NCBI GenBank assembly: GCA_023920165.1
Contig: CP089279.1
Coordinates: 1,798,001 to 1,862,000 of the forward strand
DNA: 64,000 nt
Source of the DNA: Curvularia clavata
Lineage: Eukaryota
Reading direction: 5' to 3'
The position numbers and the translations under genes were made by a program. Of the stretch, positions 476 to 33,065 are shown in pieces (the stretch's first letter is position 1; each line of letters begins with the position of its first letter). The notes below the pieces were generated by a model. The model did no database searches, was not told the origin of the DNA, and was given only the letters and a program-made list of their open reading frames with translations.

Positions 476-2032
476 TTTGTATTTATTTCTATTTTTATTT
501 CTTATAATTAGCTCGCCTATAGCGATTGGCTAATATTGAAAAGTAGTCTAAAAATAAAAGTAGGCCGCCTTATAGCCTATTAAGATTCAAAAATTGAAAT
601 AAAAACTATATCTAAGAAGAAATTTAAATATAAAGCTTTAAGCTTCTATATTTTAGACTTTAGTATTTTTAGTTTTATATATTAAATTTGATTGGCTTCG
701 GCCTTTTGTGGAATATTTTGTGAAACAATTTGTGAATTACATTTTGATTTTTGAACTAATAGTCACAGCACACCCAGCTCCGCAAAGCTAGATCGACATA
801 TCGTTAACTCCCTCCCTCGTGTCGGCGACATCAACATCCTCCATCTCCACCTCCTTAACTTCTACTGTCTCCAACTCTTGCGATCTTGAAGAAGGTTGTT
901 GGTTGCGCAAGGGATGGAAATCGGGCAGAGGGTGATGTCGATGGGTTTGCCGGGCTAGAGACTGAGTTCACGAGAGCAGGGTACTTATAGGCGGCTGTGA
1001 GCTGTTCTACTGCTTTGCGCTGCGTGTCCTCATCACAACTATGGTTCATCGAGTGCAGATTTTGCTGCCCGTTGTTGGACGCCTAATGGGGTGGTTGTTG
1101 TTGTTTTGTGGCTCAGTTCTATCCGGACTAGTACCAACTTTTCGAGACGAGGGCTAGGTGGCCTTTGGTGCCTGAGGCCTGGAGCCCGAGGCCTCGCGTT
1201 CGAATCCCTACTTGGACAGTATCCTTTATCTTGACTTCTTGATTTTTGGTGGGCTGAGGGGCGGCCTGCTGCTCGTTTATGTGATGTATATTTTGGGCTA
1301 ATCGCCGCCGGCGAGCCAATTGTGGGAAATGAAAACATAAATAAACATTAAATTTGAAATAAAGTATAAATCTAGATTAGAATAATGATAATTACACTAA
1401 TAAAGTTTTATCTATTAAGTAGCTAATAATAGATAAAGCAAATTCTAAAGTTATTAAACTATAGTTATAATTAAAATATATAGTATTAGAGTAGCGTATA
1501 CTATCTATAAATATCTACTCTTCTATTCTTATAAATTTAATTTCTAGCTTAGTAAAATCTATTAATAGTATTATATACTTAGCTTATTCTATTTCTTTTT
1601 CTAGTCTTTTTCAAATTTAGATTAGCTATATTTAATCTCTCTAGATCATAAGTAGTCTTTTTTACTCTTTTTTTAGACGTTTAGTCTACTCTCTATAAGC
1701 TACTTTTAAGTAAAGTTACTATAGAGCTATAGAAATAGCTCTTTAAATAGCTTAACTTTCTAGATATAAGTGTATTTAAAAATAATAACTATATTCTATA
1801 TTATAACTAATAGAAAGATATAATATAGCTATAATAGTTATAAGATTAGAAAATTATTTTTATTAATAGATAAGATATATTAAAAATTTATAATTCTAGC
1901 TATTAATTAATTAAAAAAAGTATAGTAAAGCTATCTATTCTAGATATTTAGTTATAGCTAGAATATAATATTTATAAAATTAGAAAAACTATTATGATTA
2001 GATATATAGATATAGAAGTAGTATTATAATAT
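476..2032 (-). mobile_element. SINE-like retroelement, subfamily 2, copy A (5'-truncated, interrupted by copy B)
   Basis: 476-691 plus 1358-2032 is the reverse complement of ~2350-3240; it carries the family 3' motif (TTAGCTCGCC...GGCCGCC) and an A-rich tail at the left end. Confidence 0.7.
692..1346 (+). mobile_element. SINE-like retroelement, subfamily 1, copy B (internally deleted, essentially un-RIPed)
   Basis: 11-bp TSD ATTAAATTTGA at 681-691 and 1347-1357; 5' GGCTTCGGCC; B-box GTTCGAATCC at 1198-1207; 3' stem-loop then GAAATGAAAACATAAATAAA tail; no TIRs. Confidence 0.8.
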
Positions 2033-2961
2033 CTAATCCGGTTTCGGCCTTTTACGAAACGTTTTAAGAAACACTTTAGATTTTATTTTTTATATTTAAA
2101 TTAAGCTTAACGAATATAGTTTAAACCCAGCCTCCGCAACGCTATATTAGTATATTGTCTAACCTCTCTCTTATATCTACTATCTTGATATCCTCTATCT
2201 CTATATTACTATCTCTATCTATATTACTATTATTATTACTATTACTATCTATGTCTACTTCCGCGTCTGTATCTATATTATCGTCTAACTAGCGTAGTCT
2301 TAACTAGATAAGATAGAGCGTTGTATCTATCTAAGCTATACTTTTTAAATAGTATTATACTACTTCTATATCTATATATCTATCTATAATAGTTTTTATA
2401 ATTTTATAAATATTATATTCTAGCTATAACTAAATATCTAGAATAGATAGCTTTACTATACTTTTTTTAATTAATTAATAGCTAGAATTATAAATTTTTA
2501 ATATATCTTATCTATTAATAAAAATAATTTTCTAATCTTATAACTATTATAGCTATATTATATCTTTCTATTAGTTATAATATAGAATATAGTTATTATT
2601 TTTAAATACACTTATATCTAGAAAGTTAAGCTATTTAAAGAGCTATTTCTATAGCTCTATAGTAACTTTACTTAAAAGTAGCTTATAGAGAGTAGACTAA
2701 ACGTCTAAAAAAAGAGTAAAAAAGACTACTTATGATCTAGAGAGATTAAATATAGCTAATCTAAATTTGAAAAAGACTAGAAAAAGAAATAGAATAAGCT
2801 AAGTATATAATACTATTAATAGATTTTACTAAGCTAGAAATTAAATTTATAAGAATAGAAGAGTAGATATTTATAGATAGTATACGCTACTCTAATACTA
2901 TATATTTTAATTATAACTATAGTTTAATAACTTTAGAATTTGCTTTATCTATTATTAGCTA
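1420..2961. repeat. Perfect 563-bp inverted repeat (1420-1982 / 2399-2961) with a 416-bp spacer
   Basis: Line-by-line comparison found no mismatch between 1420-1982 and the reverse complement of 2399-2961; first mismatches at 1419 and 1983. Confidence 0.9.
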
Positions 2962-3245
2962 TTTAATAGATAAAACTTTATTAGTGTAATTATTATTATT
3001 CTAATTTAAATCTTTACTTTATTTTAGATTTAATATATAAAGCTAAAAATACTAGAGCTTAAAATATAGAAGCTTAAAGCCTTACGTTTAAACCCTCCCC
3101 CCCACCTCTTAGATATAGTCCTTTTTTAAATTTTTAAATTTCAGTAGGCTGAGGGGCGGCCTACCTTTATTCTAAGACTATTTTTCAATATTAGCCAATT
3201 ACTATAGGCGAGCTAATAATAAGCAATGAAAATAGGAATAATTGA
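2039..3245 (+). mobile_element. SINE-like retroelement, subfamily 2, copy A' (full length)
   Basis: Starts GGTTTCGGCCTTTT like copy B; ends GGCTGAGGGGCGGCC...GGCGAGCTAAT...GCAATGAAAATAGG; internal body differs from subfamily 1. Confidence 0.7.
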
Positions 3246-3274
3246 ATAATTATAATTTTTCTTATATTTGAATA

Positions 3275-4531
3275 TTATTATTTTTCATGTTTTCATTCCC
3301 TATAATTGGCTCGTCTATAATAATTAGTTTAAAATATACATTATATGAATAAGCGGCAGACTACTTTTTAGACTACTAAAAATTAAGAAGTCAAGATAAA
3401 GAATACTATCTTAGTAGAGATTTAGATATAAAGTCTTAAATTTTAGGCTTCAAAAACTAAAGACTATCTAGCTTTCATTTTAAAAAGTTAGTACTAGTCT
3501 AAATAAAACTAAGCTATAAAACAATAATAACTATTTTATTCGATATCTAATAATAGATAGTAAAATCTATACTTAATAAACTATAGTTATAACAAGAATC
3601 CATAGTATTGAGTAGTAGAACAGCTTATAGCTATTTATAAATACTCTTTTTTATAAACTTAGTTTTTAGTCTAGTAAATCTATTAATATTAGTTTTTATC
3701 TAATTTCTATCTCTTACGTAACTAATAATCCTCTTTAAAATTATAATCCAACTATATCATTATACTCTATTAGCTTATCTGGATAGTAAAAGACTATAGT
3801 TATTTTTATACTATGTAAATACTATATTTACTTTCTTTAATAGAATAGATATTAATATTCTTTAATATTTCCAGAAATAGCTTTTTAACTAGCTAAAGTA
3901 TGTTAACTATCTATTAGCTAAAAACTACTCTATCTTACTAAAAAAGTACTAAATTAAGAAGATATAACTACACAAAACGTTAATATTCTATACTAATTTT
4001 ATTAACAGCTAAGAAGCCTTTTAACTATATAAATTTAGATTTAATTCAATCCAGAAGATTTAACGTTAAATAGAAACGTTACTATATTTTATTAGAGTAG
4101 AGTTAGAGATAGTGTAACGGTGCGCAATGCACCATTACACTACATTGGTTATGTAATCTGTAGTCACGTGGGCTGGTAGTTATAAGCCCACCCCTTTCAG
4201 TAGTTAGAGAGAGTCAGACACCTCACACACAATAGTACACAAAAACTCCAATCTTTCTCTCCTGTTCCTCTCCTCAGTTGCCTGCCCACTCACTCCTACA
4301 CCGACTCTACCGCTCACTGAGTAGAAACCGTAGCCTCGACCAACTACACCCTTACAATAGTAGAAGTTAAGAAGGTAGAGATAGAGAATATTAATATTGC
4401 TAATATAAGAAAGAAAATTAATAATATATTGATCTAGCTTTATAGAGCTAGATATACTATAACTATGAGTTTAAAAATGAAGAGATAATTTATAATATAT
4501 TTTATAAAATAGTCTATAAAAGGCTGAAGTT
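3275..4531 (-). mobile_element. SINE-like retroelement, subfamily 1, copy C (interrupted by a solo LTR)
   Basis: Colinear with 15881-17038 and with the reverse complement of copy B; ends AAAGGCTGAAGT (RIPed GGCCGAAGCC). Confidence 0.75.
4113..4356 (+). mobile_element. Solo LTR, 244 bp
   Basis: TGTAA...TTACA termini; 4-bp TSD ATAG (4109-4112, 4357-4360), confirmed against the empty site at ~16855-16870; TATAAG box; retains many CpA. Confidence 0.85.
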
Positions 4532-4559
4532 AATAAAATGCTCTATATAATATTTTACT

Positions 4560-5272
4560 TCTAAAGAAATTCAGAGCAATCTATATTGATATCAAAAAAA
4601 AGGAATATAATAGATCTTAATATATAGTGATTCTTATAGATCTATAGTTATCATAGAAGAAGATAGCTTAAAATAGATAAAAGTATAAATCAAGATAATA
4701 AAGATAGGTTTTAATATGAGTCTAGATAGTTTAGTAAATATAATAAAATAGATACAGTAAGAAGATTTTAAAGATTTAAAAAGCTAAAAGATATTATCTA
4801 ATTAATAAATTTTTTTTTAGATATATAGTAGATAGAAAGTAGTTAGAAAGTAATATTTACTAAAGTACTAGACTAGAGACTAAGTTTATGAAAGTAGAAT
4901 ATTTATATTTAGAGATTATATACTATACTACTATCTTACATATTATATTCTTATTATAACTATAGTTTATCAAGTATAGATTTTACTATCTATAGTTAGA
5001 TATCTAATAAAGTAGTTATTATTATCATGTAGTTTAGCTCTATATGAACTAGTCCTAATTTTTAAAATAAAACTAGATAGTTTTTAGTATCTAAAATCTG
5101 AAATCTAAAGTCTTATATCTAAATTTCTATTTAGATAGTATTCTTTATCTTGATTTCTTGATTTTTAGTAGACTGAGAGATAGCCTGCTACTTATTTATA
5201 TGATATATATCTTAGGCTGATCGCTATAGGCAAGCTAACTTTAGGAAATAAATATATAAATAAATAAATAAA
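4560..5272 (+). mobile_element. SINE-like retroelement, subfamily 3, copy D (degraded)
   Basis: The 3' ~450 bp matches copy B and ends in a (TAAA)n tail; the upstream part matches 31893-31980. 5' boundary uncertain. Confidence 0.6.
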
Positions 5273-5630
5273 TAGTTAAATGTTTTAGTAGATTTATTTA
5301 TATTATTTCAGTTTTTCTAAATCAACACTAGGTTACTAGTGTTTAGTTATAGTAGTTGACAACTATATCTTAGATTATAATCTTTAATTAATTAAACAGT
5401 TGTTGCAATGGTACTACTATTTACTATATTATAAGCTTTGAGTTTAGTTATCAATAAAAATAATATTTAGTTATTTTATTTATAGTTAATATATAAATCT
5501 AAATGCTATTCAAACTATATGTTAGTATTTGCTATTTATTTATCTATTTTAGAATAGTAGCCAATAGATAGCTGTAGTTAGATGCTAAAGTATTAGTAAA
5601 AGTATATCTAGAAATATGATAGAAACCATA

Positions 5631-5693
5631 TTTGTTTATCTATATTTATATATCCCACAATTAGCTCGCCTACAGCAATTAGCCCAAAATATA
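5631..5693 (-). mobile_element. SINE-like retroelement 3'-end fragment, copy E
   Basis: CCCACAATTAGCTCGCCTACAGCAATTAGCCCAAAATATA matches the family 3' end; cut off at the TA where the Tc1-like element starts. Confidence 0.6.
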
Positions 5694-6905
5694 CAGTAGG
5701 AGGACATAAAAAAAAAGAACTCGAAAAAGTAGTAGTTTTAGAATTACTATAGCTTAGCTAATAAAATAGCTAAAAATCTAAAAGATACTGATCTATAAAA
5801 AGAGTAGTCTATAGTCTTAACTTAGTATTTTAGATTTAGCTTAGTCAGTATATATAAACTAAAGTAAATTGTTAAAGTAGAATAAAGAAAAAAAGCAAAA
5901 TAAAAGCTACCTTCTCGCGCTTTAATCTTCCAGTATTTGATGTTTTTAATATATATATATAATAGATCTATTTAGTAGATTTATATATATCTTGGTTTTT
6001 TGTTCAAGAAAAATTTTAGATTAGTTAATGAAAAAATTAGAAAAAAGTAAGATATTTACTAGATACAATTAGTAGATAGTTTAAATTTTAGAGCTATATT
6101 AGAAAACTGAAGTAAAGCTGAATTAAGTTTAACATTGAGAATTCTCTTCTAACTCTTCTAGTTATTAATTTATTAATATAGTTGACTATCTAAAATCTCC
6201 TTTAAAGAAGTTTATTATTTTACTCTAGTTTTCTTAATATTTTATGAAATACTTTTATATTTAAATATGTTATTCTTCAAAGTATATATAATTTAGAAAT
6301 ATTATTATCATACCATTATACATATTAGTTATATTTTAATACTAACTAAAAGTTTACTATACGCCAAAATTCCAAGGACTTAGAAAAATTAAGATAATCA
6401 AGAAAATTAGATGTTATCAATTATATAAGTGTATATGAAAAAGGATTCAGATTTAATATTATAAGTATGATATTGAATATCTTTGTAACTCATGTTAGAA
6501 ATCATAGACTGTAGGCTTATTTCTATACATAGAAATGTAAGAAATAGAAAAAAAAGGATTATCTCTAATATATTCGTAGTTAGATAGATAACTATAGCTA
6601 TTAAAAGTGGACATTATCTATATATATATAGCCTTTTTATGTATAGATACTAAAAACGATCAATAGTAAAGAATTTGAGCACAAAAGAGTAGTTTTTATT
6701 TACTTCTTTTCTTTACTCTATTTTAATCACTTACTATATTTTCTATAATTGAACTAAGCTATATCTAAACCACTATATTAAAAATACTAACTAATCTCTA
6801 TATAAAACAATATCTGTTATATTTTTAGCTATTTTATTAGCTGAGTTATAATTATTCTAAAACTACTACTTTTTCAAGTTCTTTTTTTTTAATGTCCACC
6901 CACTG
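5694..6905. mobile_element. Tc1/mariner-like non-autonomous element with long imperfect TIRs
   Basis: TA-CAGTAGGAGGACAT ... ATGTCCACCCACTG-TA; ~250-bp imperfect TIRs related to the TIR at 17292; no readable transposase. Confidence 0.75.
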
Positions 6906-7415
6906 TATTTTGCTTCTCTCTACCGTGAGGTCTCTCGTTTCTAGGATTTTTAGATTTCCCTAGACTGCGCTACTTCTAGTAAAGGGATACTCTAATTCTA
7001 GTGTGGCTCTAGTAGCCGTGCTTATCCTTTACTTAAGTCTCTAGACTAGAGCCTTAGACACTACTCTAGCACCTATATAGCGCTACTACCTTACTATCTA
7101 GCTGCTAGGCTATTTGCTTTTATCTATTAGATAGGTCTAGACGCTTTGATTAGAGCTCTAAATTACTAGTAATTTATTTATAACTAGAGTCTAATAGCTA
7201 TCTAGTTTATATATACTAAGACTATTCACTTCTCTAGTATATATATTAATAATAATATAGTATTACTACTAAGTTTTCTTTTCTATATATCTTATTTAAA
7301 ATATGTTAGTTATAACTTTAACGCAATTATTTTCGCTATATTGCTTTATTGTCTACTTAATACGCTACTAGATACGTATTATTTTATCTATCTATAAGCT
7401 ATCTACACTTTAGTT

Positions 7416-7762: not shown

Positions 7763-8670
7763 TAGTTTACTATTAGTTTAATATTATTTCTACTTATCTA
7801 TCTAATTCCTCTAAAAAAATATATTCAATATATCTAGTAGAAAAAGAAATATAATTCTATAAGTTTACTTCTTTTTTTCTTTGCTATTTTTAGCTTAGCT
7901 AATCTAGATAGATTTTTAAGCATATTTTTAAAAGGTTTTAAAATTTAGTTAATACTATTAAGCTATATACTATTACTTAGTATAGTTTGATAGCTAAAAC
8001 TAATCTAGAGACCATATTTAACTAAATTATTATTTCTACTTTAGATTTAACTTATAAAGTTCAAGTTATTAGATTTTGAAAAAAAAAGCTTTTAGTTAAT
8101 TAGCTTCCTATTATTTAGAACTAGATCTAAAAAGATATCTAAAATAGTGTTTAAGAGTTAGTTAACATAGTTAAGAGTATAGAAATACGCTTTTTATATT
8201 TTAAAGTAAGATTAGCTTAGAATAGCGCTTAGATTAACTCTTGAATTAAGAAGAAAGAGAAATTATTCAGTTTATTCTTCTCTAAAATGAGTAAAAGTAT
8301 AGTTAACTAGAAGATAGCTAATACTAAACTAGAGCGCTCTAATATTAAACTTTAAGTAAAATAATATCTTAGAAATTTACTAGTAGTTATAAGATTAGAA
8401 TCTAAATTTTCTTTATTACTAATACCTGATAACGATTTCATTTTTCTTTTTCTCTAAATTTTATTTTATATGTTTTATTTCTTTACTATAATCTACATAC
8501 TAAGAAAATATAAAAGTTCTAGTTTAGTAGAATATTATTAATAGAAAAGTTTGAAATTATATAGAGTTTTTATAAAGTTTAAAACTAGATACTATATAGA
8601 ATTTAGATTATATCTAACTTACTAAATTAAGTATTTTAGATTTAGATAGTATAACTTATCTACTAGAATC

Positions 8671-9025
8671 TGTTGTAGATAAGCTACTCAGCTACTCTAC
8701 GACAGAATCCGGGTGCTCAGTCACACCCAGATTCTACAATCAACTTAATCTATAGTCGATCTATCAAGACTATAATCGATCTATAGACATCTGTCTATGA
8801 CGCTAAAGATTACGCAAGCTACTACTAGATAGATTCTGCTAGAATCTACTCTAGCCAATATATATAGTAGTAGAATAGCTAGTAGATAGAAACCAGAGCA
8901 GTTTATACAAAGTCAATTGTATCTATCAACTCTCTCCCCTAGCATATACTACTCACTTGAGTCTTTGATCAAGCTACCTCTGAGTCTACTACTAGTAGAA
9001 CAAGTAGCTACCCCACACTTTGACA
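8671..9025 (+). mobile_element. Solo LTR, ~350-bp family, copy 2
   Basis: TGTTG...TGACA; 5-bp TSD GAATC; inserted in the chromodomain region of Gypsy relic 1. Confidence 0.9.
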
Positions 9026-11134
9026 GAATCTTTTCTACTTTTTGTTCTTCTATATTTTAAATAAAAGTAGCTAGAGGCTTTAGAAGTTTTTATTCTAAGG
9101 ACAGATTTTATAAATCTTTATATAATAGATCTAGAGCGAAAATATTATAAATCTCGATTTTTTTCAGATAGTCTAAGTAGTATAAATACTCTATCTCCTC
9201 AAATATTTTAAAAGACTTCGCTTATTTATAAAATAGTTTTCTACTTGAATAGTCTAACGCAAGATTTTAAATACTTGAAAAAACTATATCTTCTATATTC
9301 TAGTAAATAGAATAATAATAGCAATTGACTATAGTTTACATCCCATTCTAGACTTTCTCTATCTATTTTTTAACTATCTTCTATCTATTATATACATAGA
9401 TAGTTGTTTCCAATCTACCTTTATAGTTAAGTTTATTGATCGAAGTAAAAACGCTGATAAAATGTTTCTAATTCTAACTCTATTAGAGTTTAGGACTATA
9501 TAAAATATAGTATAGAGATATACTGATAGAAAAATAGAGTAGAAAAATTTAAGTATAGTTAATTAATAATAGAAGTCTACTCTAGTTATTTTAGTAGTAG
9601 AATATAAATAGATATAACTTTTAAATAATATATATATTTATAATTTCTATCCAACTATCTATTTCTTTATAGTAGGTAGTTAATAGCTTAACTTTAATAT
9701 TTAGAATCTAGTAGAATTCCAACTAGAATCTTAAAATAAATTATAGTTCTTAGTCCAAGACCATAGTTTTAAATATATAGCTAAATCAGTTCATCTATTA
9801 AATTAATAAGTTGTCTATTTTTTTCATATTAATAGTTTTATAATAGAAAATAGAAATAGACTACTTAAATAACTAGTTAATTATAACTATGATAATATTA
9901 TCATTAAATTAGTTCTAAAAAATATTTTTAAAGTTAATATATAGATACTATACTAGCTAGTTAGAAATTAGTGAAAAATAAATTATTTTTCAAATTTTAA
10001 CCTATTTTAAGTATATCTTTTTATAGACTATATAGTTCTGTATATATTTTTTATAAATAGATTCTATACTCTTCTAGTAGTATTTCTAGAATAGTAGTTA
10101 TTAAGTTTTCTTTACGTTAAAATATGCCAAGAATATCTAGTTATATACTTCTTAAACAAAGTAAATTATAAAAATAGAAATAAAAAAATATATAAGTAGT
10201 TAGAATGAAATAAAAATTTATTTTTAATCTGATACTTATTTAGAAGAGACCTTTACTTTGATTTAAAAAAGATTTAGTTCTTTTATAGAATAGACTTACT
10301 TAGCTCTAGTAAATTCAAAAATATCAACTCTAATATAAGCTTAACTATAAAAAAAAAAATTCTATTTAGAGATAAACTATATAAGTTTTAGTAAGGTTAA
10401 AGTTAATCTAACCTTGAACTAGTATAGCTCTAGAAGAGTCTATGAATAGTTATTAATTTAAACTATTTTCAGATTTTTTAGATTTTACTTTTATTAAAAA
10501 AAAAATATTAGTATAGGTATTTTCTTTTCTAAAAGTATACTACATAAAGAAATTAAAAGATTTTAACTTTTCTAACTATTATACTTAGTAGATATCTAAA
10601 ACTTTAGTAATTATAAAGTATTTAAGAAAATAGTAGTCTAAGTATATATTAATATAAGAGCGTAGTAATAGTAGTTTAGATTTCTACTTACTTAATACTG
10701 TTATAATAGCAAATAGTTTTTTATTATATATTTTTTAGTTTAACTTGGACTTAGATAGAACTTTACCAAAAAATACCATAGGATACTATTTTCTATTTAA
10801 CTACTTTTAGAAAAGAATTCCTATCATAATACTATTAAATATATTAGTTTCTATTTTAGTATTGTACTTAAAATAGTAATATCATACAACAGAAATTACT
10901 AATAGTATAGATTTTAACTTTCTAAAAGTTTAGTTATATTTTAAATTTCATATAAATAGCTTTGAAAAGCTTCAGAAAATAAAAACAAAAATTATAATTT
11001 ATAAGTATTTAGAAATATACTACTAATAGAATCTAGTAAACTCTAGCAACAACTTTATATTAGTAATAGTAGTAGATTAGACGTAATTTTAAAAAACTTC
11101 TATTTTATTAGAATTTATCTCTATATTTTAGTTA

Positions 11135-19547: not shown

Positions 19548-19720
19548 ACGCTAAGGATCAGCAAGCTGGCCAGATCAGCAAGCTGGTAACCCTATCTAAC
19601 CTAATTTAACTCTCTTCACCATTAATCTATAACGATATAGTCAAATTAAATAAAATTTAACAAATATAATTTATTATCTAGATTTATCTAAAGTAAGAGT
19701 ATAATATCAAATATAGCAGT
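19548..19720 (+). mobile_element. Left-end fragment of another pogo-like element
   Basis: TA-ACGCTAAGGATCAGCAAGCTGG with an internal direct repeat typical of pogo TIRs; truncated at the junction with Gypsy pol. Confidence 0.55.
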
Positions 19721-22700
19721 TTGTGTATATTAGCAGCGCGCGCTAGCGTCGCTAACTGCCCTTACTCTACTCTATCTCTATAACTACTCTTTCTATCTCT
19801 AAAGTAAGCTACTAAGTCTACTATATCTAGAGTACTCTACTAGAAGTACTATATTCACGCGGCTAATTCTACTTTTATTACTAGCACTAATTTGCTTCAT
19901 ATAGCTTTTTATTCTTTTCTATAAATATTACTACTAATTATATTATGTATTTATACTGCGATGTCTTTAGCAAGATAGTGGTAGAGCTACTGCCCGAATA
20001 TCGCCTATACGATTATAAGATTGTACTAACTGAACCTTTTCCAAATTAATTTAGTCCTCTATATAAGTAGAGTACTAAAGAACTTAAAGCTACTAAGATA
20101 TTCGTAATAGAAAACCTTAGAAAAGGATATATTAATCTAAGCTACTGCCTTTTCGCCTCTCTAGTCTTTTATATTCAGAAACCAAATAGAGATATTTGTA
20201 TCTATGTAGATTACCGCCAACTTAACGCAATTACTAAAAAGAATACGTATCTAATACCACGTATTAATAAGCTTCTAGCCCACACTTATAAGGCAAAAAT
20301 CTTTACCAAGCTTAACATACATACGGCATTTAATAAGATCTGAATATACCCTGACTTAGAGGAGTATACTATATTCCGCACTAGATATAGAACTTATAAG
20401 TCTAAAGTATTACCTTTTAAATTATATAATAGCCCTATAATATATTAACGCTATATAAATAATATATTAATTAATTATCTAGATAGCTTCTACATAGTCT
20501 ATCTAGACAATATTTTAATCTACTCTAGATTAGAACTGGACCACCCCCGCCACGTATAATAAGTCCTAGAAAGACTTAGGCAAGCAGGTCTCTAAATTAA
20601 TATTAAGAAAAGCGAATTCTATATTACTTAGACCAAATACCTAGAGTATATTTTAACTAACTAAAGTTTGGAGGTAGACTCTAATAAAGTAGAAGCCCTT
20701 TAAGATTAGGTCTAACCTACTACTATTACTAGTATAAAGTCGTTCCTAGAGTTTACTAGATTCTATAGATAGTTTATTCCTAAATATTTATAAATTATAA
20801 AACTTCTCCTCGCCTTCTAGAGCCTTTTAAGACTATTTGTATAGAATTTAGAGTATAACTAAGCTTTTAAAAAGTTAAAATCTATACTGCTAGCAATTTA
20901 TATATTATACTACTACCATCTAGAGTATAATACTAAGGTAGAGACTAACGCGTCTAATAGCGTTATAGTAGGCGTTCTTTCCCAAAAGTAGCTAAATAGA
21001 AATTAGTATCCTATAGCATTCTTTAGCAAGGTCCTATCCAGGTCTAAGCTAAACTAGAAAATACATAACAAAGAACTATTCGCCATCGTAACGGCGTTTA
21101 GCAAGTAGCGACCTAAACTGCTATTAGTACGCTCTCGTGTTAATGTGTACTCAGACCACCATTCCTTCAAATACTTTATAACTACTAAAGTCCTAAATAC
21201 CCGCTAAGTACGATAGATAGAAGAATTAGTATTCTTTAATTTCTATATCTAATACACCTCTAGAAAGAATAATATTTATACTAATATCTTTTTTTAATAA
21301 GAGTAAGATATAAGAAATCTAAAAATAGTCTAAATTAATAACTATTCGGGGGTCCTCCTAGAACTATACTAACTTAATAACTAAATTAACTCTAAACTTG
21401 CTAAAACCTATATAGCCTAACTCTAAGCAGAATCTTTCTCTTTACTTATAGTTGAGCCTATATTAGAGCTAATATCTTTTAATTCGCTAGAGCTAATCGA
21501 GTCTATTCTATAAGAGAACTAAACTTTATTTAAAATAAAGTAAAGGTCCCTTTTAGATAGATACTAAATTAAAAATAGACTCCTACTCTATTCTAACTAC
21601 CTATATATTTCTTCCACCTCTACTCTTATAACTTACTTTATTTAGAAAGTATATAACTAGATATTCTTAGCGCACCCTAGTATAAAGAAGACCTACTAAC
21701 TACTATCCTAGAAGTACTACTAGAAAGGTATAGAATCTATCTATAAAAGATATATATAGAATTATATAGCCTATAGAAAAGCCTATTCTAGATAGACCCG
21801 AACTCTAGAGATAATTTATTTTTTACTAATTTCTAACTAGCTAATATAGCACCTATATATTAACTTTAAAAAATTTCTCTAAGATTAATCTAGTTACGAT
21901 ATAATTATAGTCGTAATTAACTAGTTATCTAAGCAGGCTATCTCTATCCTCTACTATAAGACTATTAATATAAGAGGAATAGCTAACCTATTCGTATAAT
22001 AGATGTACTAATTTAGCTATACATCTAAAACTATAGTCTCTAACTAAGGACTATAGTTTATTTTAAGCTTCTAGTTAGAATTCTGCTAAATTCTAGACGT
22101 TAAGATTAAGCTATTAACTATCTACTATAAAGAAATAGATAGTTAGACAGAGATTATAAATAAGTATATTAATTAGAGATTACGTCTATTTATATTCTAC
22201 TACTAAGATAACTAGAGTAGACTTCTATCTTTAATTAATCGCGCTTAAATTTCCCTACTATATTCTTCTATTAGTATATCTCTATACTATATTCTATATA
22301 GTTCTAAACCCTAGTAGAGTTAGGACTAGAAATATTCTACTAGCCTTCTTACCTCTACTAATAAACTTAACTATAAGAATATATTAAAAATAGCTATCTA
22401 TATATATAATGTATAGAAGATAGCTAAAGAATAAATAGAGAAAGTCTAGAATAGGATATAAACTATAGTTAACTACTATTATTATTCTATTAACTAGAAT
22501 GTGGGAGATATAGTTTTCCTAAGTATCTAAAATCTCGCGTTAGACCATCTAAGTAGGAAGCTATCTTCTAAATAGAAAGGACCCTTTAGAGTATTTAAAA
22601 AAATAGAATATTTATATTACTTAGACTTTCTAAAAAAGTTCTAGATTTATAATATTTTTACTCTAGATTTATTATATAAAGATTCTTAAAACCCCCTTCT

Positions 22701-24525
22701 AGAATAAGAACCTCTAAAGCTTCTGGCCACTCCTATCTAAAGCGTAGAAGAATAGGAAGTAGAAGAAATTCTAGTAAGTAAGTTATACTACTTAAATTTA
22801 AAATACTAAGTATAGTAGGTTAGATATAATCTAGATTCTACTTAGTATCTAGCTTTAAACTTTATAGGAGCCCTATATAAGCTTAAGCTCTTCTATAAAT
22901 AATATTCTACTAAACTAGGACTTTTATATTCTATTAGTAAGTAGATTATAATATAGAAATAAAATATAGAAAATATAACTTTACTATAAAATAATAAAAT
23001 TTAGAAAAAAGAAAAAATAGAAATTTTATTAAGTATTAGTAATAAAGAAAACTTAAATCTAAATTTTATAACTACTAGTAAACCCTCTAAATATTATCTT
23101 ACTTAAAGCTTAATATTAGAGCGCTTTAGCTTAGCGTTAGCTATCTTCTAGTTAACTGCATCTTTATCCTCCTCTAAAAAGAAGGATAAACTAGACTATT
23201 TCTCTAACTTCTTAACCTGAAGGCTAATCTAGACGCTATCTTAAGCTGATCTAGCCTTAAAACGCAAAAGGCGTCTTTCTATACTATTAACTATATTAAC
23301 TAATTTTAAAATACTATTTTAGATATCCCTTAGAACCTAGTTCTAGGCGATAAGAAGCTAATTAACTAAAAGCTTTTTTTTCTAGGATCTAATAACTTAG
23401 ACTTTATAGATAATATCTAAAGTAGTAGTAGTAATTTAATTAAGTAATATCTCTATATTAGTATTAACTATAGGGCTATACTAAGCGATAGTATATAGCT
23501 TAATAGTATTAACTAAATTATAAAACTTCTTAAAGATGTACTTAGGAATCTATCTAGATTAGCTAAGCTATAAATAGTAAAGGAAAAGAAAAGTAAACTT
23601 ATAGAATTGCACTTCTCCTTCTACTAGATATAATAAAGACATTTCTTAGAGGAATTGGATAGATAGGCGTAAGTAATATCGAACTAACGGCGCGCTAAGG
23701 CGCGGATAGCTCGTAGATAGATAAAGCGATACGTATCTAGTAGCGTACTAGATAGATAATAAAGAGATATAGCGAAAACGAGTGCGTTAAGTTATAACTA
23801 ACTTATTTTAATTAAGAAGTATAGAGAAGAAAACTTAGTAGTAATACTATATTATTATTAATATATATACTAGAGGAGTAAATAGTCTTAGTATACGTAA
23901 CTTAGATAGCTATTAGACCCTAACTATAAATAAATCGCCGGCGACTTAGAGCTCTAATCAAAGCGTCCAGGCCTGTCTAGCAGGTGAAAGTAAACGGCCT
24001 AGCGGCTAGGCAGCAAGATAGCAGCGCCACGTAAGTACTAGAGTGGCTACTGAGGCTTAGGCACAGAGGCTTAAGTGAAGAACATGCACGGCCACAGGAG
24101 CCACACCAGAACTAGAGTATCCCATTAGCTAGAGTGGCGTAGTATAGGGAAAATCTAGAGAAATCAGGAACGAGAGACCTAATAGTGCAGGAAAGAAGAA
24201 TGACCACTAGAACTAATAGCTATAGGACTAGCTGTCTACTAGGAGGAGGGGTAATATAACTATATATAGACTAAAACATACCCTAGCTAGAATAGCTTAC
24301 TAAGATCTAATTAAAGGCTAGGTCAGATCTAATAAAGACCCGCCCCTAGGTATAAGTACTAGCTACCTTCTATAGATATTTGGTAGATTTTTAATATCCT
24401 TTCGTACTAGGTCTATAAGTGTCTACTAAATCTAAGGTATTTCTGCTGTCCCACGCACTTCCATATACATTTGAGTAACACTTCCTACCGGAACCGATTC
24501 GACTAGTCTTGCTCGCGCCGTTACA
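19720..24525 (+). mobile_element. Chromodomain Ty3/Gypsy relic 2: RT-RNaseH-integrase-chromodomain, long 3' region, PPT and 3' LTR (24255-24525)
   Basis: De-RIPed motifs LPEHRPYDH, CVDYRQLNAIT, YLDDILIYS, ETDAS, IHDKEL, VSDRGPQF, TDGQTE and chromodomain; PPT AGGAGGAGGGG; LTR TATAAC (RIPed TGTAAC)...GTTACA. 5' LTR and gag are missing. Confidence 0.92.
23000..23760 (-). pseudogene. Antisense spliced accessory gene of the Gypsy family (Cys-cluster plus helical domain), RIPed
   Basis: Minus-strand frame ...KKCLY[C]xQQKEKCNS | 53-nt intron 23602-23550 ([G]TAAGT...GCTAAT...TAG) | IPKY...LLVNQLLIAQNQVLRDIQN...; region and splice-like signals recur in relics 1 and 3. Ends approximate. Confidence 0.6.
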
Positions 24526-27886: not shown

Positions 27887-29741
27887 ACGTAGTGGATAAG
27901 CGAGTCGCGCAGGCAAGCGAGTCGCGCACCTCACCAACTTTCTTACCCTATCATACTTGCCTCCATTATGGCTCCACGCCACGCTACTCAATTACTCTTA
28001 AACGAATTAGATATCTAGCTTACTATACAGTCTCTTAATTCTAATTAAATTCAAATAGGCCAGCGCGCAGCTTCGATCTTTAATATACCTAAATCGACAT
28101 TACGTAATTGAAGCGCTGGGAAGCGTGCTAGACGCGATTGCCAGCCTAACTTAAAGAAGCTTACTTAGATAGAAAAGGAGGTAATTATTAGCTATATATT
28201 TGATCTAGATCAGCGCAGATTTGCGCCTACCTATACTACCGTGCGCGATATAGCTGATAAGCTGCTAGCTGCGTGCAGCGCTGGCCAGGTTGGGCAGAAA
28301 TAGCTAGCTAACTTTATCAAGCGTACAGACAGTCTTACAACGCGTTTCAATTAGGCGTATGATAGGCAGAGAGCTCTATATAAAGATCTAGTCTTAATTA
28401 AGAGCTAGTTTAAGCTTATAGAGTAGACGAAAGCCAAGTACGGCATCTATGATGAGGACGTCTACAACTTTAACAAAGCTGGCTTCTTAATGGGCAAGAT
28501 TACTACTCAGCTTGTCGTTACAGCGTTAGAAAGAAGATCTCGACTAAAGGCTATCCAGCCAGATGGTCGCGAGTGGGTAACGTTTATCGCTACGATTAAC
28601 GCAGCCAGCTAGTCTATCCCACTATTTCTAATCTTTACTAGCAAGTATCACCTGTCTACTTGGTACGATGAGGCAGAGATCCCACGCGACTGGGCGATTG
28701 CAGTCAGCGATAACAGCTAGACGACTAACGAGCTAGAAGTCGAGTAGTTAAAGCACTTTATTAAGTATACAGAGGGTAAAGTTGTTAGAGCACGCCAGCT
28801 ACTTATTCTTGACGGCCATAAGAGCTACCAGTCACTTGAGTTCCAAGAGCTCTATAAGGAGAACAATATCTACACGCTCTATATGCCGCCTTACTCGTCT
28901 CACCTACTTCAGCCTCTCGACGTTGGCTGCTTCTCGCTATTGAAGCGCGCGTATAGCCGTAAGGTGGAGAGCCTAATACGTAACTATATTAACTATATCA
29001 CTAAGCTTAAGTTTTTACCAGCATTTAAGGCCGCCTTTAATCGCTCGTTTACCTCAGCTAATATCTGCTCTGCCTTCTATGGCGCAGGCCTTATGCCTCT
29101 CCAGCCAGATGTTGTTCTATTAAAGCTTAACGTGAAGCTGCGTACACCTACTCCACCAGCTGTTCTAACAGAGGCTCTCTGGCAAGCTCGTACACCTAGC
29201 AACACACGCGAGCTTGAAGCTTAATCGACGTTAATACGTAATCGCGTTTAGCGGCACCAAGACTTATCACTAGCTTTAATTATTATAGCAATTAGCCAGC
29301 TTAAGAAGGGGGCAGAGATAATAATGCTCTTAGCTGAGCTAATGCGCAATCGAATCGCCAGTCTTAAGATAGCTAATAAGATAGCAATAAAGTGTAGGCA
29401 GCGTAAAAGAAAGCGGATATAGAAGCGAGGGGTGATTATAAAGAGAGAAGGAGAGGATCTACTCGCGCAGCGTAAGGCAGATTAGCAGATTGCTTATAAA
29501 CAGCGCTATAGAGGAGAGCAATCAGGTGTCAGCCAACAGGCTTTAGCGCGCTATAGCAGGTGTAGAGAGACTGGCCATAATGCGCGTACATGTAAGAACG
29601 ATACTATAGTAACTAGTTAATCTACTACACCAATATATATTGAGATAGTCGTATAGTGGTGGAGTTATATGCTGATAGAGGTGCGAAGGTTTGGTGGGGT
29701 GCGCGACTCGCTTGCCTGCGCGACTCGCTTATCCACTACGT
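27887..29741 (+). mobile_element. pogo/Fot1-type DNA transposon, full length, RIPed transposase from ATG 27968
   Basis: TA-ACGTAGTGGATAAGCGAGTCGCGC TIRs; LILDGH, PPYSSHLLQPLDVGCF, C-terminal CRETGHNARTC; 1855 bp. Confidence 0.93.
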
Positions 29742-30262
29742 TATAAAAAGAAGAATATTGTTCTTTTCTACATATCTGCGCACTCGTCTTACTTATTACA
29801 GCCTCTTAACGTTGCCTACTTCTCGCTATTAAAGCGTAAGTATAGCGACGTTGTTCTAGACTTAGCACGTAACTATACTAACTATATTAGTAAGGAGACC
29901 TTCCTACTAGCCTTTAAGGCGGCTTTTAAGCAGTCTATTATAAAGAAAAATATCTAAGCTAGCTTTAAAGACGCTAGTCTAGTTCTACACGACCTATAGG
30001 CTATACTATCAAAGCTTGATATAGTAGTGCAGACACTATATTAATTACCGCGATAGATAGCCGCTTAGAAGGCGCAGACACCACGTAACGCGCGCGAGAT
30101 TAAAACTTAAATTAGTTTTATTTAATAGAGCGTAAGAAATTACCGTAGATCTTCTACTAATTTACTTACCAAATAGATCGCGCAGTTAAGTAAAGAGGCT
30201 CAGCAAATAGCATATAAGATAGTACTTCTAATAGAGAAAATTAGTACTCTTTAAGCAGCTCT

Positions 30263-30612
30263 TGTTGTAGATCTAAGCTAGTCAGCTAATCTACAGTATC
30301 TGGGTGCGTACTTCTACACCCAGAATCAACTTAGTCTATAGTCGATCTGTCAAGACTATAATCGATCTATAGACATCTGTCTATGACGCCAAAGATTACG
30401 CAAGCTACTACTAGATAGATTCTTCTAGAATCTACTCCAGCCAATATATATAGTAGTAGAATAGCTAGTAGATAGAAACCAGAGCAGTTTATACAAAGTC
30501 AATCGTGTCCATCAACTCTCTCCCCTAGCAATCTCTCGTCTATCTAGAGTCTCTCGATCAGGCTGTCTAAGTCTACTACTAGTAGTACTAGCAGCCACCT
30601 ATTACTTTGACA
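30263..30612 (+). mobile_element. Solo LTR, ~350-bp family, copy 3
   Basis: TGTTG...TGACA; 5-bp TSD GCTCT. Confidence 0.9.
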
Positions 30613-30985
30613 GCTCTTAACAAGTTAAATAAGCGTAAGAGCTATAAGCGGCGATATATATAGATAGAAGAGACTTTTACTATAGATAAAGTATAAGAAG
30701 TATTAGCTAAATAGGTAGATAGCAGTCGTAGCAACGGTAAGAGTACGTCGAAGAGGGTGCGAGAAGAGAGGCAGTGTGGGCGTTATAAATAGACTAGATA
30801 TAACGCTTATACCTATATAGTTAAGATAGATAGTATAAGTAATAGTGGCGATTCTAATAATTAAATTAGTATATTGCAATAGTTTATTAACTATAACAAA
30901 AGACTATAATAACATATCGACGTCGGCGCGCTGGTGGGGCGTGAGCCGCTCAGTTGGGTGAGCCGCTCGCTTGTGAACCACGTTA

Positions 30986-33065
30986 TAGTATTACTATGAA
31001 GTTTTCTTTTCTATACTGTTTAATCAAATAAATGAATTATACTCTAATATCTCTATTTTTACTATATTTTTTAATATCTATCTAGTATATTATAAGAAAT
31101 ATAATATTTTTTCTATCTATAAGCTATCTATACTTTATCATACTATTAGTTTAATAGTATTTATATCTATCTATTTAATTTTTTTAAAAGTATATTTATT
31201 ATGTTTAGTAAAAAGAAGAGTATAATTCAAAAAAGTTTACTTTTTTCCTCTTCTATAACTTATAGTTTAGCTAATCTAAATATATTCTTAAGTATATTTT
31301 GAAAAGAAGATTTATAATTTAGTTAATACTATTAAGTTATATACTATTGCTTAGGATAGTTTTATAGCTGAAACTAATTTAGAAGCTATATTAAATCAAA
31401 TTATTATCTGTATTTCCAGTATCGCTTATAAAATCTAAGTTAGGAGATTTTAGAAAAAAACTTTTAATTAATTAGTTTTTTATCATCTAGAACTAGATTC
31501 TAAAAGATATCTAAAAAAGCATTTTAAAATCAGTTAATATAGTTAAAAGTATTAAAAAATATTTTTTATATTATAAAATAAAATCAGCTCAAAATAGTGT
31601 TTTGAATAGCTTTTAGATCAAGATATTAAAAGAATTGTCAGATTTTTCTTTTATAAAAAGAGAATAAGAGTATAGTTAATTAGAGAATAGCTGATACTAA
31701 ATAAAAGTACTCTAATATTAGACTTTAAGTTAAATAGTATTTAAAAAGTTTACTAGCAGTAGTAGGGTTTAAGTCTAAATTTTCTTTGTCATTAATATCT
31801 AATATAGTTTCATTTTTTTTTTTTTTAATTTTATTATTCTATAGTAAAATTATATCTTTTATATTGTATTTCTATGTTGTAGTTTACTTATAGGTAGACA
31901 TGGTAAGAAGATAATTGAAGAAGCTAATGGATGATATCCGATTGATGAGGAAGACGTTTTAGATACGTAGTAGATAGAAATTAGTTAGAGGGTGATATTG
32001 ATTAAGTTGCCAGACTAGAGACTAAGGTTATAAGAATAGAGTATTTATAGTTGGAAGTCATATACTATACTACTATCTTACGCTTTATATCCTTATTATA
32101 ACTATAGTTTATTAAATATAGATTTTACTATCTATAGTTAGATATCTAATAAAGAAGTTATTATTATTTTATAGCTTAGTTCTATTTAGACTATTACTAG
32201 CTTTTTGAAATAAGAGCTAAACAGCTTTTAGTATCTAAGGTCTAGAGTCTAAAGGGCTATATATTTAAATCTCTACTAAGATAGTATCTTTTATTTTAAC
32301 TTTTTAATTTTTAGTAGACTAAGAGATAGTCTGCCGCTCGTTTATATGATGTATATTTTGGGCTAATCGCCGCAGGCGAGCCAATCACTGGAAATAAAAA
32401 TAGAAAGAAATAGTTTACTTATAAAAAGCATACAAAAATTCTAATTTAGTAAAATATTATTTACGAAAGAATTTAGATTTATATAAAACTTCTGTAAAGT
32501 TTAAAGCTAGATACTAAACAGAGTCTAAATTGTATCTAACTTACTATATCTAGTATTCTGGATTTAAATAGTATAATTTATTGATTAGAATCTTTTCTAT
32601 CTTTTTTTTTTTCTAAATTTTGAATAGAAGTAGCTAGAGACTTTGGAGATTCTTACTTTGAAAAAAGGTTTTAACAGTTTTTAAATCATAGGTTTAAAGT
32701 AAAGATATTGTTTGAGTCTAGAATTTTTTAGTAGATATAGATAGTATTAATATCTGAATATTTTTAAGTACTCTAAAAAATCTTTTTTATTGAGAAAAGC
32801 ACTTTCTACTTAAATAGTCTAATATGAAACTCTAAATACTTAGAAGGACTATATTTTACTATTTCAGTTAATGAAATAATAATATTGGTTAACTATAGAT
32901 TATCTACTATTTTAGACTTCCTCTATTTTTTTTTAGCTATCTTTGATATATTATATACATTAGTAGCTTTTTTTAACATATTTTTTCATAGTTGAATTTA
33001 TTGGTAAAAAGATAAGGACTGATAAAATATTTCTAGTTCTAATTCTACTCTAATTTAGAACTTTA
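30986..33065 (-). mobile_element. Chromodomain Ty3/Gypsy relic 3 (3' region, chromodomain, integrase end)
   Basis: Colinear with ~7250-9500 and with the reverse complement of ~22300-23900; very degraded. Confidence 0.75.
31893..32410 (+). mobile_element. SINE-like retroelement, subfamily 3, copy G (5'-truncated)
   Basis: 13-bp TSD TAGTTTACTTATA (31880-31892, 32411-32423); family 3' stem-loop and A-rich tail; lacks the GGCTTCGGCC end. Confidence 0.8.

Follow-up and report, generated by a model that had tools for sequence, protein, structure and literature searches.

Eight Related Copies in the Window

The repeats at this locus raise the question of what they are: an ordinary transposon family or, as a preliminary description proposed, a non-autonomous retroelement that serves as a mobile cassette for a complete Pol II gene located on the other strand. 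BLAST and MAFFT comparisons across the window (the whole 64-kb stretch of DNA analysed) revealed eight related copies at about the places proposed for them (Table 1). A 25-nt motif from the 3′ end gave seven matches with at most 3 mismatches in the 64 kb, a list that excludes copy D, the eighth copy; none of 100 shuffled sequences contained any match. When the whole window was scanned on both strands with a RIP-tolerant procedure, the high-scoring tiles coincided with the sites of the eight copies, with the short piece at 5634-5695 scoring inside the null range. Together, these analyses bear out the eight proposed copies. One marginal extra tile at 9803-11021 (score 197.5 vs. a maximum of 182 in 30 shuffles) sits in a Gypsy repeat and was treated as noise.

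The block of repeats that houses the family is AT-rich and belongs to a Pleosporaceae fungus. The organism has further copies elsewhere: one of its read sets (X1) yielded 72 contig pieces of ≥85% identity, and another (X2) yielded 52. Loose ends in these contigs lie before position 692 and behind ~1330, where differing A-rich tails follow.

Table 1. Copies and sequence features of the family, in window coordinates
Feature	Position	Strand	Description
Copy A	476-2036 (476-691 + 1347-2036, split by B)	-	C-type subfamily, RIPed
B left TSD	681-691	+	ATTAAATTTGA; identical to 1347-1357; 0/300 shuffles as long
Copy B	692-1346	+	young, un-RIPed, 655-bp short form, inserted within copy A
Copy B head	692-877	+	abuts 3′ module directly
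5′ head hairpin GGC-TTCG-GCC	694-703	+	same start in B, C, D and F (alignment)
Shared 3′ module, ~466 nt	878-1346	+	in B, D, F, E and G; more diverged in A and C
Bulged 3′ stem-loop GGCT-aat-CGCC-gcc-GGCG-AGCC	1296-1317	+	same predicted fold in B and G; motif matched in 7 copies at ≤3 mismatches
B tail, A-rich (AAAY)n-type	1331-1346	+	AATAAA at 1340-1345; ends at TSD
B right TSD	1347-1357	+	identical to 681-691
Copy C	2039-3245	+	full-length, ~1.2 kb, diverged subfamily, RIPed
Copy D	3275-4531	-	full-length long form, RIPed
Copy E	4745-5272	+	~60-nt leader + 3′ module, RIPed
Further copy, last ~62 nt + tail	5631-5695	-	84% match to B 594-655 (BLAST)
Copy F	15881-17038	-	full-length long form, RIPed, 1158 bp
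Copy G	31893-32410	+	518 bp, leader + 3′ module, exact 13-bp TSD

RIP and the Relative Age of the Copies

Seven copies are heavily RIP-mutated; B, which lies inside the older copy A, is un-RIPed. The composition of B (GC 0.493, TA/AT 0.76 and (CA+TG)/(AC+GT) 1.28) is that of the genic half of the window, whereas TA/AT reaches 1.4-1.5 in the old copies (1.45 in C, where GC is 0.232). C>T or G>A changes account for 183 of the 230 differences between B and D and for 161 of 202 between B and F. Among copies in the read sets, the two changes together made up 42/65 (X1) and 40/68 (X2) of the places tallied by change type. The old copies were mutated by RIP, and B landed in an already RIPed copy, itself remaining unmutated. 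Contigs spanning the junctions of B with 0 differences were present in both X1 and X2.

Ends and Modular Structure

In the MAFFT alignment, copies B, C, D and F share one start with a GGCTTCGGCC-type head, and on inspection by eye the sequences upstream of them show no resemblance; the four copies said to begin at the head hairpin do so. This hairpin folds, yet it is unexceptional (z = -0.28 vs. shuffles). The 3′ stem-loop folds as first described in B and G, the two least-mutated copies, with z values of -0.56 and -0.83, respectively, which are not significant, so that neither hairpin has extra stability over shuffled sequence (z = -0.3 to -0.8). A tail of ~15-26 nt (hand count) follows directly after the 3′ hairpin region. 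It is of variable A/(AAAY)n type, on one strand only. The stem-loop fold and variable tail that had been reported are therefore present; the tail is not poly(A), and the stability of the fold is only at shuffle level. Neither TIRs nor LTRs above chance were found in B, F and C, as had been claimed; the comparison of the first 120 with the last 120 nt of F was borderline, its score being equalled by 15/500 shuffles.

The structural forms number three or more and have the ~466-nt 3′ module in common: copies C, D, F and A are of a long form (1.15-1.2 kb), copy B is of a short form (655 bp), and copies E and G are of a leader form (~520 bp). Copy F consists of a 187-nt head, a 484-nt internal part and the 3′ module; B aligns to F 2-187 and F 672-1156, and F 188-671 is absent from it. 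Both the head and the internal part of F are homologous to C (0/100 shuffles each). In the C/A subfamily, C 307-996 matches 2036-1347 at 97.8% and C 990-1203 matches copy A 687-483 at 80% (BLAST), and A is without a counterpart of C 1-306. Copy D is interrupted by a 244-bp foreign insert at 4113-4356. The module of E aligns to B 896-1346; its 5′ limit is uncertain and could extend back to 4532.

The junctions of three different 5′ parts with the module fall within ~3 nt of one point: homology between F and B picks up again at 878, and that between G and B begins at 881. Copy G had been taken for a 5′-truncated element. Instead, it possesses its own leader of ~60 nt, common to E alone: the first 58 nt of G are homologous to those of E (0/300 shuffles) and show no homology to F, D, C or B, where 289, 140, 94 and 248 of 300 shuffles, respectively, gave an equal score. 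A simple truncation of the long form is thus not borne out for G. The piece at 5631-5693 is uninformative about truncation, since it is cut exactly at a Tc1/mariner terminal repeat, whose end (TACAGT...) starts at 5692 and lines up with that of three other mariner copies.

Target-Site Duplications and Empty Sites

Target-site duplications (TSDs) of 11, ~8 and 13 bp had been reported. The TSD of B is an exact 11 bp, or 13 bp if one mismatch is allowed, and the homologous place in copy C (~3024-3034, reverse strand) has ATTAAATTTGA once. Copy G is flanked by an exact 13-bp duplication (31880-31892 = 32411-32423), a length reached in 0/300 shuffles, and its host repeat is uninterrupted in two paralogues at ~8470-8500 and ~22930-22960 (reverse strand). 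The candidate of ~8 bp at F, ATAACCTA(C/G)T, is at chance level in AT-rich DNA (46/300 shuffles), as are the candidates at D (160/300) and C (89/300). Insertion involves a discrete unit and yields a long TSD (11-13 bp). A variable TSD length is not proven, since there are two solid TSDs and both can be read as 13 bp. The case for hallmarks of LINE target-primed reverse transcription is accordingly weaker than first stated, given only two solid TSDs, a leader of G's own and a window in which no LINE was found.

Coding Capacity

A Pfam search of B and F in all six frames, and of E and G in the three sense frames, gave no domain, in agreement with the reported lack of reverse transcriptase and transposase motifs. 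The only antisense ATG ORFs of B encode 64 aa (855-1049) and 99 aa (1039-1338). If the element existed to carry a complete Pol II gene opposite the strand of the tail, these two frames in un-mutated B would be its candidates, and there is a precedent in ROPIP1, a peptide encoded on the SINE-like Eg-R1 (bioRxiv 10.1101/242271). One divergent X2 copy also keeps the 64-aa frame despite 2 + 1 nt insertions at 990/993. However, no frame matched Pfam above threshold, a word-indexed search gave no homologue of either ORF, and with HMMER the 99-aa ORF had 0 matches in 1.84 billion representatives. In other copies from X1 and X2, this ORF is broken by 1-bp deletions at 1209, 1219, 1228 and 1230 and by a 1-nt insertion at 1221, and its R/P/S-rich product is what would be expected of a frame open by chance in non-coding DNA rich in GC. 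Over bins 882-939, covering a portion of the 64-aa ORF, the depths of X1 and X2 add up to just that of B's own contig, the opposite of what a conserved cargo would give. The claimed gene is thus unsupported, a cassette function is highly improbable, and the element carries no detectable cargo gene.

Alternative Origins

That the copies are not mobile and stem from segmental duplication and rearrangement in a RIP-degraded repeat block is hardly credible. Five of them do cluster in 5.3 kb in alternating orientation, and A and C share a 563-bp stretch that is 100% identical. Yet B and G are precise insertions whose TSDs and uninterrupted paralogous sites refute such an origin for these two, the flanks of D, E, F and A had no partner elsewhere in the window, and read-set contigs contain copies with other flanks elsewhere in the organism. 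We also consider it very improbable that the family is a DNA transposon without obvious TIRs (e.g., a non-TIR Mutator-like one) making long TSDs of fixed length. The two solid TSDs, both readable as 13 bp, would agree with this, and the block also contains several remnants of DDE transposases; on the other hand, TIRs are absent, the variable A-rich tail is at a single end, and G has a perfect TSD but not the head, the would-be transposon terminus. A 13-bp TSD matches, to our knowledge, no known DNA-transposon superfamily, which also counts against this origin.

Unlikely, though less so, is that the copies are chimeric retrocopies made repeatedly de novo and not a self-propagating family. The 466-nt module would then come from the 3′ end of a LINE, with E and G as 5′-truncated copies of that LINE; a cellular non-coding RNA, added by template switching, would have supplied the head and internal parts. 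The joining of three 5′ parts to the module within ~3 nt speaks for this, as does the shared architecture of the Magnaporthe MINE/WEIRD chimeras, for which TSDs of 10-20 bp are reported (PMC2104539). However, the junction of head, internal part and module is identical in D and F, and the C/A subfamily has the same overall architecture, which argues that the chimera itself has long been propagating as a single unit. The starts of E and G differ by no more than ~10 nt, an improbable outcome of two random truncations (with the 5′ limit of E uncertain), and no ORF2 remnant is present in three sense frames of either (Pfam).

Proposed Transcription and Mobilization

The proposal of a non-autonomous retroelement mobilized in trans is supported by the TSDs, the one-strand tail and the fixed 5′ end. 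Since two insertions were verified, neither TIRs, LTRs nor coding capacity were found, and 5′ variants occur on one module, the copies are best viewed as a non-autonomous retroelement. We consider it probable that they form a family of LINE-dependent, Pol III-independent, SINE-like non-LTR retroposons without a Pol III-derived head, akin to Eg-R1 or MINE. No LINE partner was found in the window, where heavily RIPed LINE debris may have escaped the search; the sole reverse transcriptase detected there is that of Ty3/Gypsy, and the remaining coding remnants are Tc1/mariner and pogo. No tRNA was found, no Rfam family reached the gathering score in the window, and a search of B at E ≤ 10 gave nothing relevant, with no tRNA, 5S, 7SL, snRNA or ribozyme. 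Judging from the sequence, transcription by Pol II is more likely than by Pol III, since runs of T4-T5 (704-707, 716-719, 742-745 and 748-752) occur within the first 61 nt of B.

One can envisage that an autonomous LINE supplies a reverse transcriptase that would recognize an RNA beginning with either the head or the E/G leader, the 3′ module and tail of this RNA serving for recognition; the enzyme would then nick AT-rich DNA and copy the RNA in place by target-primed reverse transcription. The 5′ parts may have been joined at the 5′ border of the module via template switching or recombination. The nearest published survey suggests that the partner could be a LINE of the I/Tad1 superfamily: in the related Cochliobolus heterostrophus, it lists 101 I-superfamily LINE copies, 68 of them judged potentially active (PMC4112212).

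Comparison with Known Retroposons

Fungi are known to have SINE-like elements of the Pol II type, marked by TSDs, oligo-T runs and AAUAAA. One such element is Eg-R1 (EGRT1), a non-autonomous non-LTR retroposon that is transcribed by Pol II in Blumeria graminis (bioRxiv 10.1101/242271). By this description, Eg-R1 is like the present family in being TSD-flanked, ~0.67 kb long (the size of copy B) and without RT or EN; its 5′ region has no A/B boxes, internal oligo-T runs would stop Pol III, and AATAAA lies near the 3′ end with no long genomic poly(A). It differs in its host, Leotiomycetes without RIP where thousands of copies are described, as opposed to Pleosporaceae with RIP and few copies, and in that its transcription and polyadenylation were demonstrated, whereas the present family is known from DNA alone. 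The present family also differs in being modular, with a long form of 1.15-1.2 kb.

MINE of Magnaporthe, a LINE-made chimera of WEIRD and the 3′ part of the MGL LINE, has a ~1-kb non-coding 5′ RNA part of no Pol III origin, a 3′ part that bears LINE reverse transcription signals and several 5′/3′ combinations (PMC2104539). Its 3′ part is described as a demonstrably truncated LINE of variable length, whereas the module of the present family is of fixed length and its LINE origin putative; unlike MINE, the chimera here appears to propagate as one unit. Canonical fungal SINEs, represented by Mg-SINE (PMC2104539) and AfuSINE2/3 (PMC5063351), are likewise non-autonomous, with a 3′ end thought to mimic that of a LINE, as proposed for our 3′ module, and AfuSINE2 has variable TSDs of 4-14 bp; they are 140-493 bp long, and their heads, derived from tRNA or 5S, contain Pol III promoters. 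The present family, at 0.5-1.2 kb, shows no detected tRNA, 5S or 7SL similarity and has T-runs near its 5′ end. RIME/ingi of trypanosomes and other end-to-end deletion derivatives of LINEs offer a further parallel: the present elements could likewise derive from the two ends, 5′ and 3′, of an autonomous LINE and be mobilized in trans.

Thus, since no detectable gene is carried, the repeats of this locus are an ordinary kind of transposon family, made of short non-coding copy-and-paste retroposons and probably previously undescribed.

Copies, Ends and Modular Structure of the Family

All eight copies of the SINE-like family listed in the preliminary description were recovered by BLAST and MAFFT at essentially the same coordinates. 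With a degenerate 25-nt motif spanning the 3′ stem-loop, seven matches with three mismatches or fewer were obtained, against none in 100 shuffles; the eighth copy, D, is absent from the motif list at this threshold. A transition-tolerant scan of both strands of the whole window revealed nothing convincing outside the places of the eight copies, and we regard a single extra tile in a Gypsy repeat (score 197.5 vs. a maximum of 182 in 30 shuffles) as noise. Between positions 476 and 5695, five neighbouring copies stand in alternating orientation (A, C, D, E and the fragment), with the 5′ ends of A and C 2 bp apart and the tails of C and D ~30 bp apart.

Copies of the retroposon family and neighbouring features (positions within the window)
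Feature	Position	Strand	Remarks
Copy A	476-2036	-	interrupted by B
Copy B	692-1346	+	head and 3′ module
Copy C	2039-3245	+	long form
Copy D	3275-4531	-	long form
Copy E	4745-5272	+	own leader and 3′ module
Fragment	5631-5695	-
Copy F	15881-17038	-	long form
Copy G	31893-32410	+	own leader and 3′ module
Tc1/mariner-like elements	5692-6907; ~17.28, 25.9-26.0 and 33.06 kb		terminal repeat TACAGTGGGG
Ty3/Gypsy, partial copy	9000-11600	-
Ty3/Gypsy element, RIP-degraded	19600-22800	+	read-through translation: RVT_1, RT_RNaseH, Integrase_H2C2, Tf2-1 SH3 (SH3_Tf2-1)
DDE_3 remnant	12561-12902	+
DDE_3 remnant	33457-33813	-
pogo/Fot1-type DDE_1 transposase remnants	18428-18748, 28748-29224, 29679-29957	+	less-mutated patches, GC ~0.40-0.43
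Amino-acid permease	35518-37246	-	right half
Copper amine oxidase			right half
M28 peptidase/TFR-like			right half
GAS2-domain protein			right half
Dicer			right half

As had been described, copies B, C, D and F begin with a common head start of the GGCTTCGGCC type, and in the alignment their upstream flanks are unrelated as judged by eye. All copies share the same 3′ end region, followed by an A-rich tail of ~15-26 nt (manual count) that is variable in sequence. The tail begins after a conserved GGAAAT, is found on the sense strand only and differs among copies; that of B contains AATAAA at 1340-1345. B itself starts with TTGG and ends with AAAC, its 3′ hairpin lying 29 nt from the end. The reported absence of TIRs and LTRs was upheld by shuffle tests, which showed none above chance. 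When the first 60 nt were compared with the reverse complement of the last 60, shuffles equalled the match in 123 (B), 369 (F) and 422 (C) cases out of 500; direct terminal repeats are likewise absent from B and C (30 and 237 of 500 shuffles as good), with F being borderline (15/500). A panhandle or TIR formed by 5′ TTGGCT and 3′ AGCCAA was rejected, as it is just 6 nt long, lies 27 nt from the 3′ end and is lost in D and C. The whole RNA fold of B is not more stable than those of shuffles (z = +0.98).

Alignment of F (1158 bp) to B matched F 2-187 to B 1-186 and F 672-1156 to B 187-655, so that B is without 484 internal bases of F. Splicing was considered as the cause of this difference and rejected, since the borders in B, D, F and the consensus of loose contig ends (see below) are without GT...AG. 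The head and the internal part of F are each homologous to C (0/100 shuffles each), and the long form of ~1.15-1.2 kb is therefore old and common to two subfamilies. Copy A lacks the first ~306 nt, and its 5′ end abuts C. Copy G had been taken for a 5′-truncated long form; G and E instead share a separate leader. Their first ~58-62 nt are mutually homologous (0/300 shuffles), whereas comparison with F, D, C and B gave scores equalled by 289, 140, 94 and 248 of 300 shuffles, respectively. Homology of G to B starts at 881, 3 nt from the joint between the head and the 3′ part of B (877/878). Thus, three 5′ parts join a 3′ module of ~466 nt at practically one border.

The short piece at 5631-5695 stops where a Tc1/mariner terminal repeat, in register with those of three further mariner copies, sets in, and therefore cannot be counted as a 5′ truncation. 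A continuation of this piece past the mariner element (after 6907) was not found. The flanks of the element do not match each other; its insertion was therefore followed by a rearrangement.

Target-Site Duplications

Exact TSDs of 11 bp (681-691 = 1347-1357) and 13 bp (31880-31892 = 32411-32423) border copies B and G, respectively, and neither was equalled in 300 shuffles. The homologous place in copy C has the TSD sequence of B once, and the repeat hosting G is uninterrupted at the insertion place in two paralogues. B and G are, among the eight copies, those with TSDs of more than 6 bp and empty sites. The window contains no paralogous empty site that matches F, D, E or A. The candidate TSDs of F, D and C are at the level expected by chance in AT-rich DNA (46, 160 and 89 of 300 shuffles as good). 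Of the variable TSD length proposed earlier, the readings of 11 vs. 13 bp stand, but allowing one mismatch extends the TSD of B to 13 bp as well. With two informative copies out of eight, the difference in length is thus not proven.

RIP and the Age of the Copies

B has a GC content of 0.49, a TA/AT ratio of 0.76 and a (CA+TG)/(AC+GT) ratio of 1.28, indices identical to those of the genic half of the window. In the other copies, the corresponding values are 0.18-0.29, 1.3-1.5 and 0.2-0.75. Among the 230 changes that distinguish D from B, C>T and G>A account for 183 and the opposite direction for only 14; between B and F, the same two changes make up 161/202. Repeat-induced point mutation (RIP) occurs in Pleosporales, and the bias seen in the old copies is its signature. 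Since B sits within RIPed copy A, it came after the mutation of A.

A and C form an inverted pair whose inner arms (1347-2036 vs. 2345-3034) are 97.8% identical, and their central 563 bp (1420-1982 vs. 2399-2961) are 100% identical, whereas the outer arms (483-687 vs. 3028-3241) are only 84% identical, with 26 of the 33 differences being transitions. The change in identity falls exactly at the B insertion; gene conversion halted by heterology and an assembly artefact are both possible causes of the identical stretch. Copy D contains a 244-bp GC-rich, un-RIPed insert (4113-4356) with TGTAA...TTACA termini and ATAG on either side (4109-4112 and 4357-4360). No such insert interrupts copy F at this place, and the window has no other copies of it. 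In appearance it resembles the solo LTR of a retrotransposon of the LTR type.

Setting of the Copies

The left half of the window (1-34 kb, GC 0.21-0.43) is pieced together from degraded repeats, namely, Tc1/mariner (DDE_3), pogo-like (DDE_1) and Ty3/Gypsy, while the right half (~34-64 kb, GC 0.45-0.54) contains ordinary genes. A 996-aa ORF with a GAS2 domain has its nearest named relatives in Bipolaris (72-73% identity); Stemphylium, Pyrenophora and Alternaria come next, which places the fungal host in Pleosporaceae. The change from the AT-rich RIPed compartment to gene-dense DNA is abrupt (~34000-36000), and the first gene past the boundary, the amino-acid permease, is separated from the last remnant of a transposase by no more than ~1.5 kb. 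The repeat that hosts G (31.3-32.6 kb) has paralogues at 7.9-8.7 and 22.8-23.6 kb, occurs immediately after the Ty3/Gypsy element and may be the LTR of this adjoining element.

Other Copies in Read Sets

Contigs of two DNA runs under the same species label (X1 and X2) were aligned to positions 592-1446. At an identity of at least 85%, 72 and 52 pieces were found in the two runs, contig depth not being taken as copy number. The A/B junction is present with no differences in both, although one run may be the window's own assembly sample, and the junction is therefore not independent support. Loose ends of contigs fall at 692, before the element, and at ~1330, behind it, where the contigs run into differing A-rich continuations. 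The commonest changes are C>T and G>A, which together account for 42/65 tallied places (X1) and 40/68 (X2). Past position 855, the consensus of head-matching contigs reads ...CAACTCT followed by GCCC, F continues from the same sequence with ACCC (a RIP-type G>A change) and B with TGCG. The contig consensus fits F, not B, and suggests that less-mutated long-form copies exist.

No RNA run was among those listed as containing B. A possible RNA run (X6) yielded two pieces, which come from diverged copies rather than from B and have no bearing on expression. A run labelled as another organism (X3) contained one 268-bp contig of depth 2, 99.6% identical to 841-1108 in the middle of B, and a 'plant metagenome' run had the same share of the sampled words of B as X3. 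These B-like matches could come from a close relative, contamination or transfer. Two degenerate motifs of the 3′ module retrieved no loci in metagenome scans.

Coding Capacity

According to the preliminary description, the element carried a complete gene on its opposite strand. ATG-initiated ORFs of B are 64 and 99 aa long in antisense and 38 aa in sense orientation. A word-indexed search revealed no homologues of the two antisense ORFs, and none was found for the 99-aa ORF among 1.84 billion representatives. No Pfam family scored above the cut-off in six frames of B and F or three frames of E and G, and by the same analysis none of these copies encodes RT, EN or any other transposition protein. 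Other copies have 1-bp, frame-breaking indels inside the 99-aa ORF. None of these results supports a cargo gene.

Class Assignment

A canonical Pol III-transcribed SINE would have a head derived from tRNA, 7SL or 5S RNA, in which A and B boxes are found. ARAGORN found no tRNA genes, Rfam gave no matches at the gathering score (in B, one irrelevant lncRNA match with E = 6.3), and the head has no similarity to tRNA, 5S, 7SL, snRNA or ribozymes. Terminator-like T runs of B (T4 at 704-707, 716-719 and 742-745; T5 at 748-752) all lie within its first 61 nt, which also speaks against this class. A B-box-like GTTCGAATCC at 1198-1207, which agrees at 10 of 11 positions with the Pol III B-box consensus, is located ~505 nt from the 5′ end of the element and is not embedded in a tRNA fold. 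A DNA transposon or MITE with TIRs was rejected, as inverted repeats do not exceed shuffles in B, F and C. LTR retrotransposons are recognised by TG...CA termini, a TSD of 4-6 bp and direct terminal repeats; B has TTGG...AAAC ends and an 11-bp TSD, and neither B nor C has direct terminal repeats, so an LTR retrotransposon or solo LTR does not fit. Helitrons lack a TSD, insert between A and T, start with TC, end with CTRR and have a hairpin ~11 nt before the terminus, and the TSDs, termini and hairpin position observed here are at odds with each of the corresponding features.

Closer parallels are found among fungal elements. Eg-R1 of Blumeria is, in the part of the preprint considered here, a Pol II-transcribed SINE-like element with TSDs, and the present family resembles it in being without a Pol III-type head and in having T4-T5 runs near the 5′ end and AATAAA (bioRxiv 10.1101/242271). 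MINE chimeras of Magnaporthe, consisting of WEIRD and MGL, have TSDs of 10-20 bp in the sections considered, and the likeness is in one fixed 3′ module placed on different non-coding 5′ parts; here, three 5′ variants meet the module within ~3 nt (PMC2104539). As to the enzyme, no LINE was found among the parts of the window examined. For Cochliobolus heterostrophus, a TE survey lists 101 copies of I-superfamily LINEs, 68 of them judged potentially active; in the sections considered, it reports neither this family nor SINEs, the latter being named in background text only (PMC4112212).

Taken together, the TSDs, Eg-R1-like features, MINE-like modularity and I-superfamily LINEs in a relative lead us to infer target-primed reverse transcription. 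The enzyme of a LINE would recognise the 3′ module and tail and reverse-transcribe the retroposon RNA at the target. The source RNA would be expected to start with (U)UGGCUUCGGCC and to end in the (AAAY)n tail.

Significance

We conclude that this is a real non-autonomous retroposon family of a known kind, without a gene, and RIP-degraded save for one recent copy. It is probably undescribed: no description was found in the literature on fungal SINEs and on Pleosporaceae genera or with three sequence strings, subscription journals, Repbase and Dfam lying outside the scope of this search. No new element class and no gene-carrying mechanism is opened by these results. Their use is in the annotation of the Curvularia clavata genome and its relatives, where standard classifiers would call such a repeat family, with no coding capacity, TIR, LTR or Pol III head, "unknown".

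A bolder proposal, which we think improbable, is that the ~466-nt module acts as a portable 'retrotransposition handle' in a RIP-proficient Pleosporaceae genome. Template switching at a single sharp border would even now be adding the module to various non-coding RNAs (head, head with internal part, or leader) and so giving new Pol II-type SINE-like elements, with B recent enough to be active today; in the boldest form, one small ORF would be expressed, as has been reported of ROPIP1 on Eg-R1.

The most interesting residue of the analysis is the sharp modular border together with the post-RIP insertion. The modular 5′ variants offer a small testable case of template-switch chimeras outside Magnaporthe. 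The nesting of un-RIPed B in RIPed A shows that LINE-type machinery of some kind was at work here later than the last RIP round of the locus, and such an insertion bears on how static AT-rich compartments really are.
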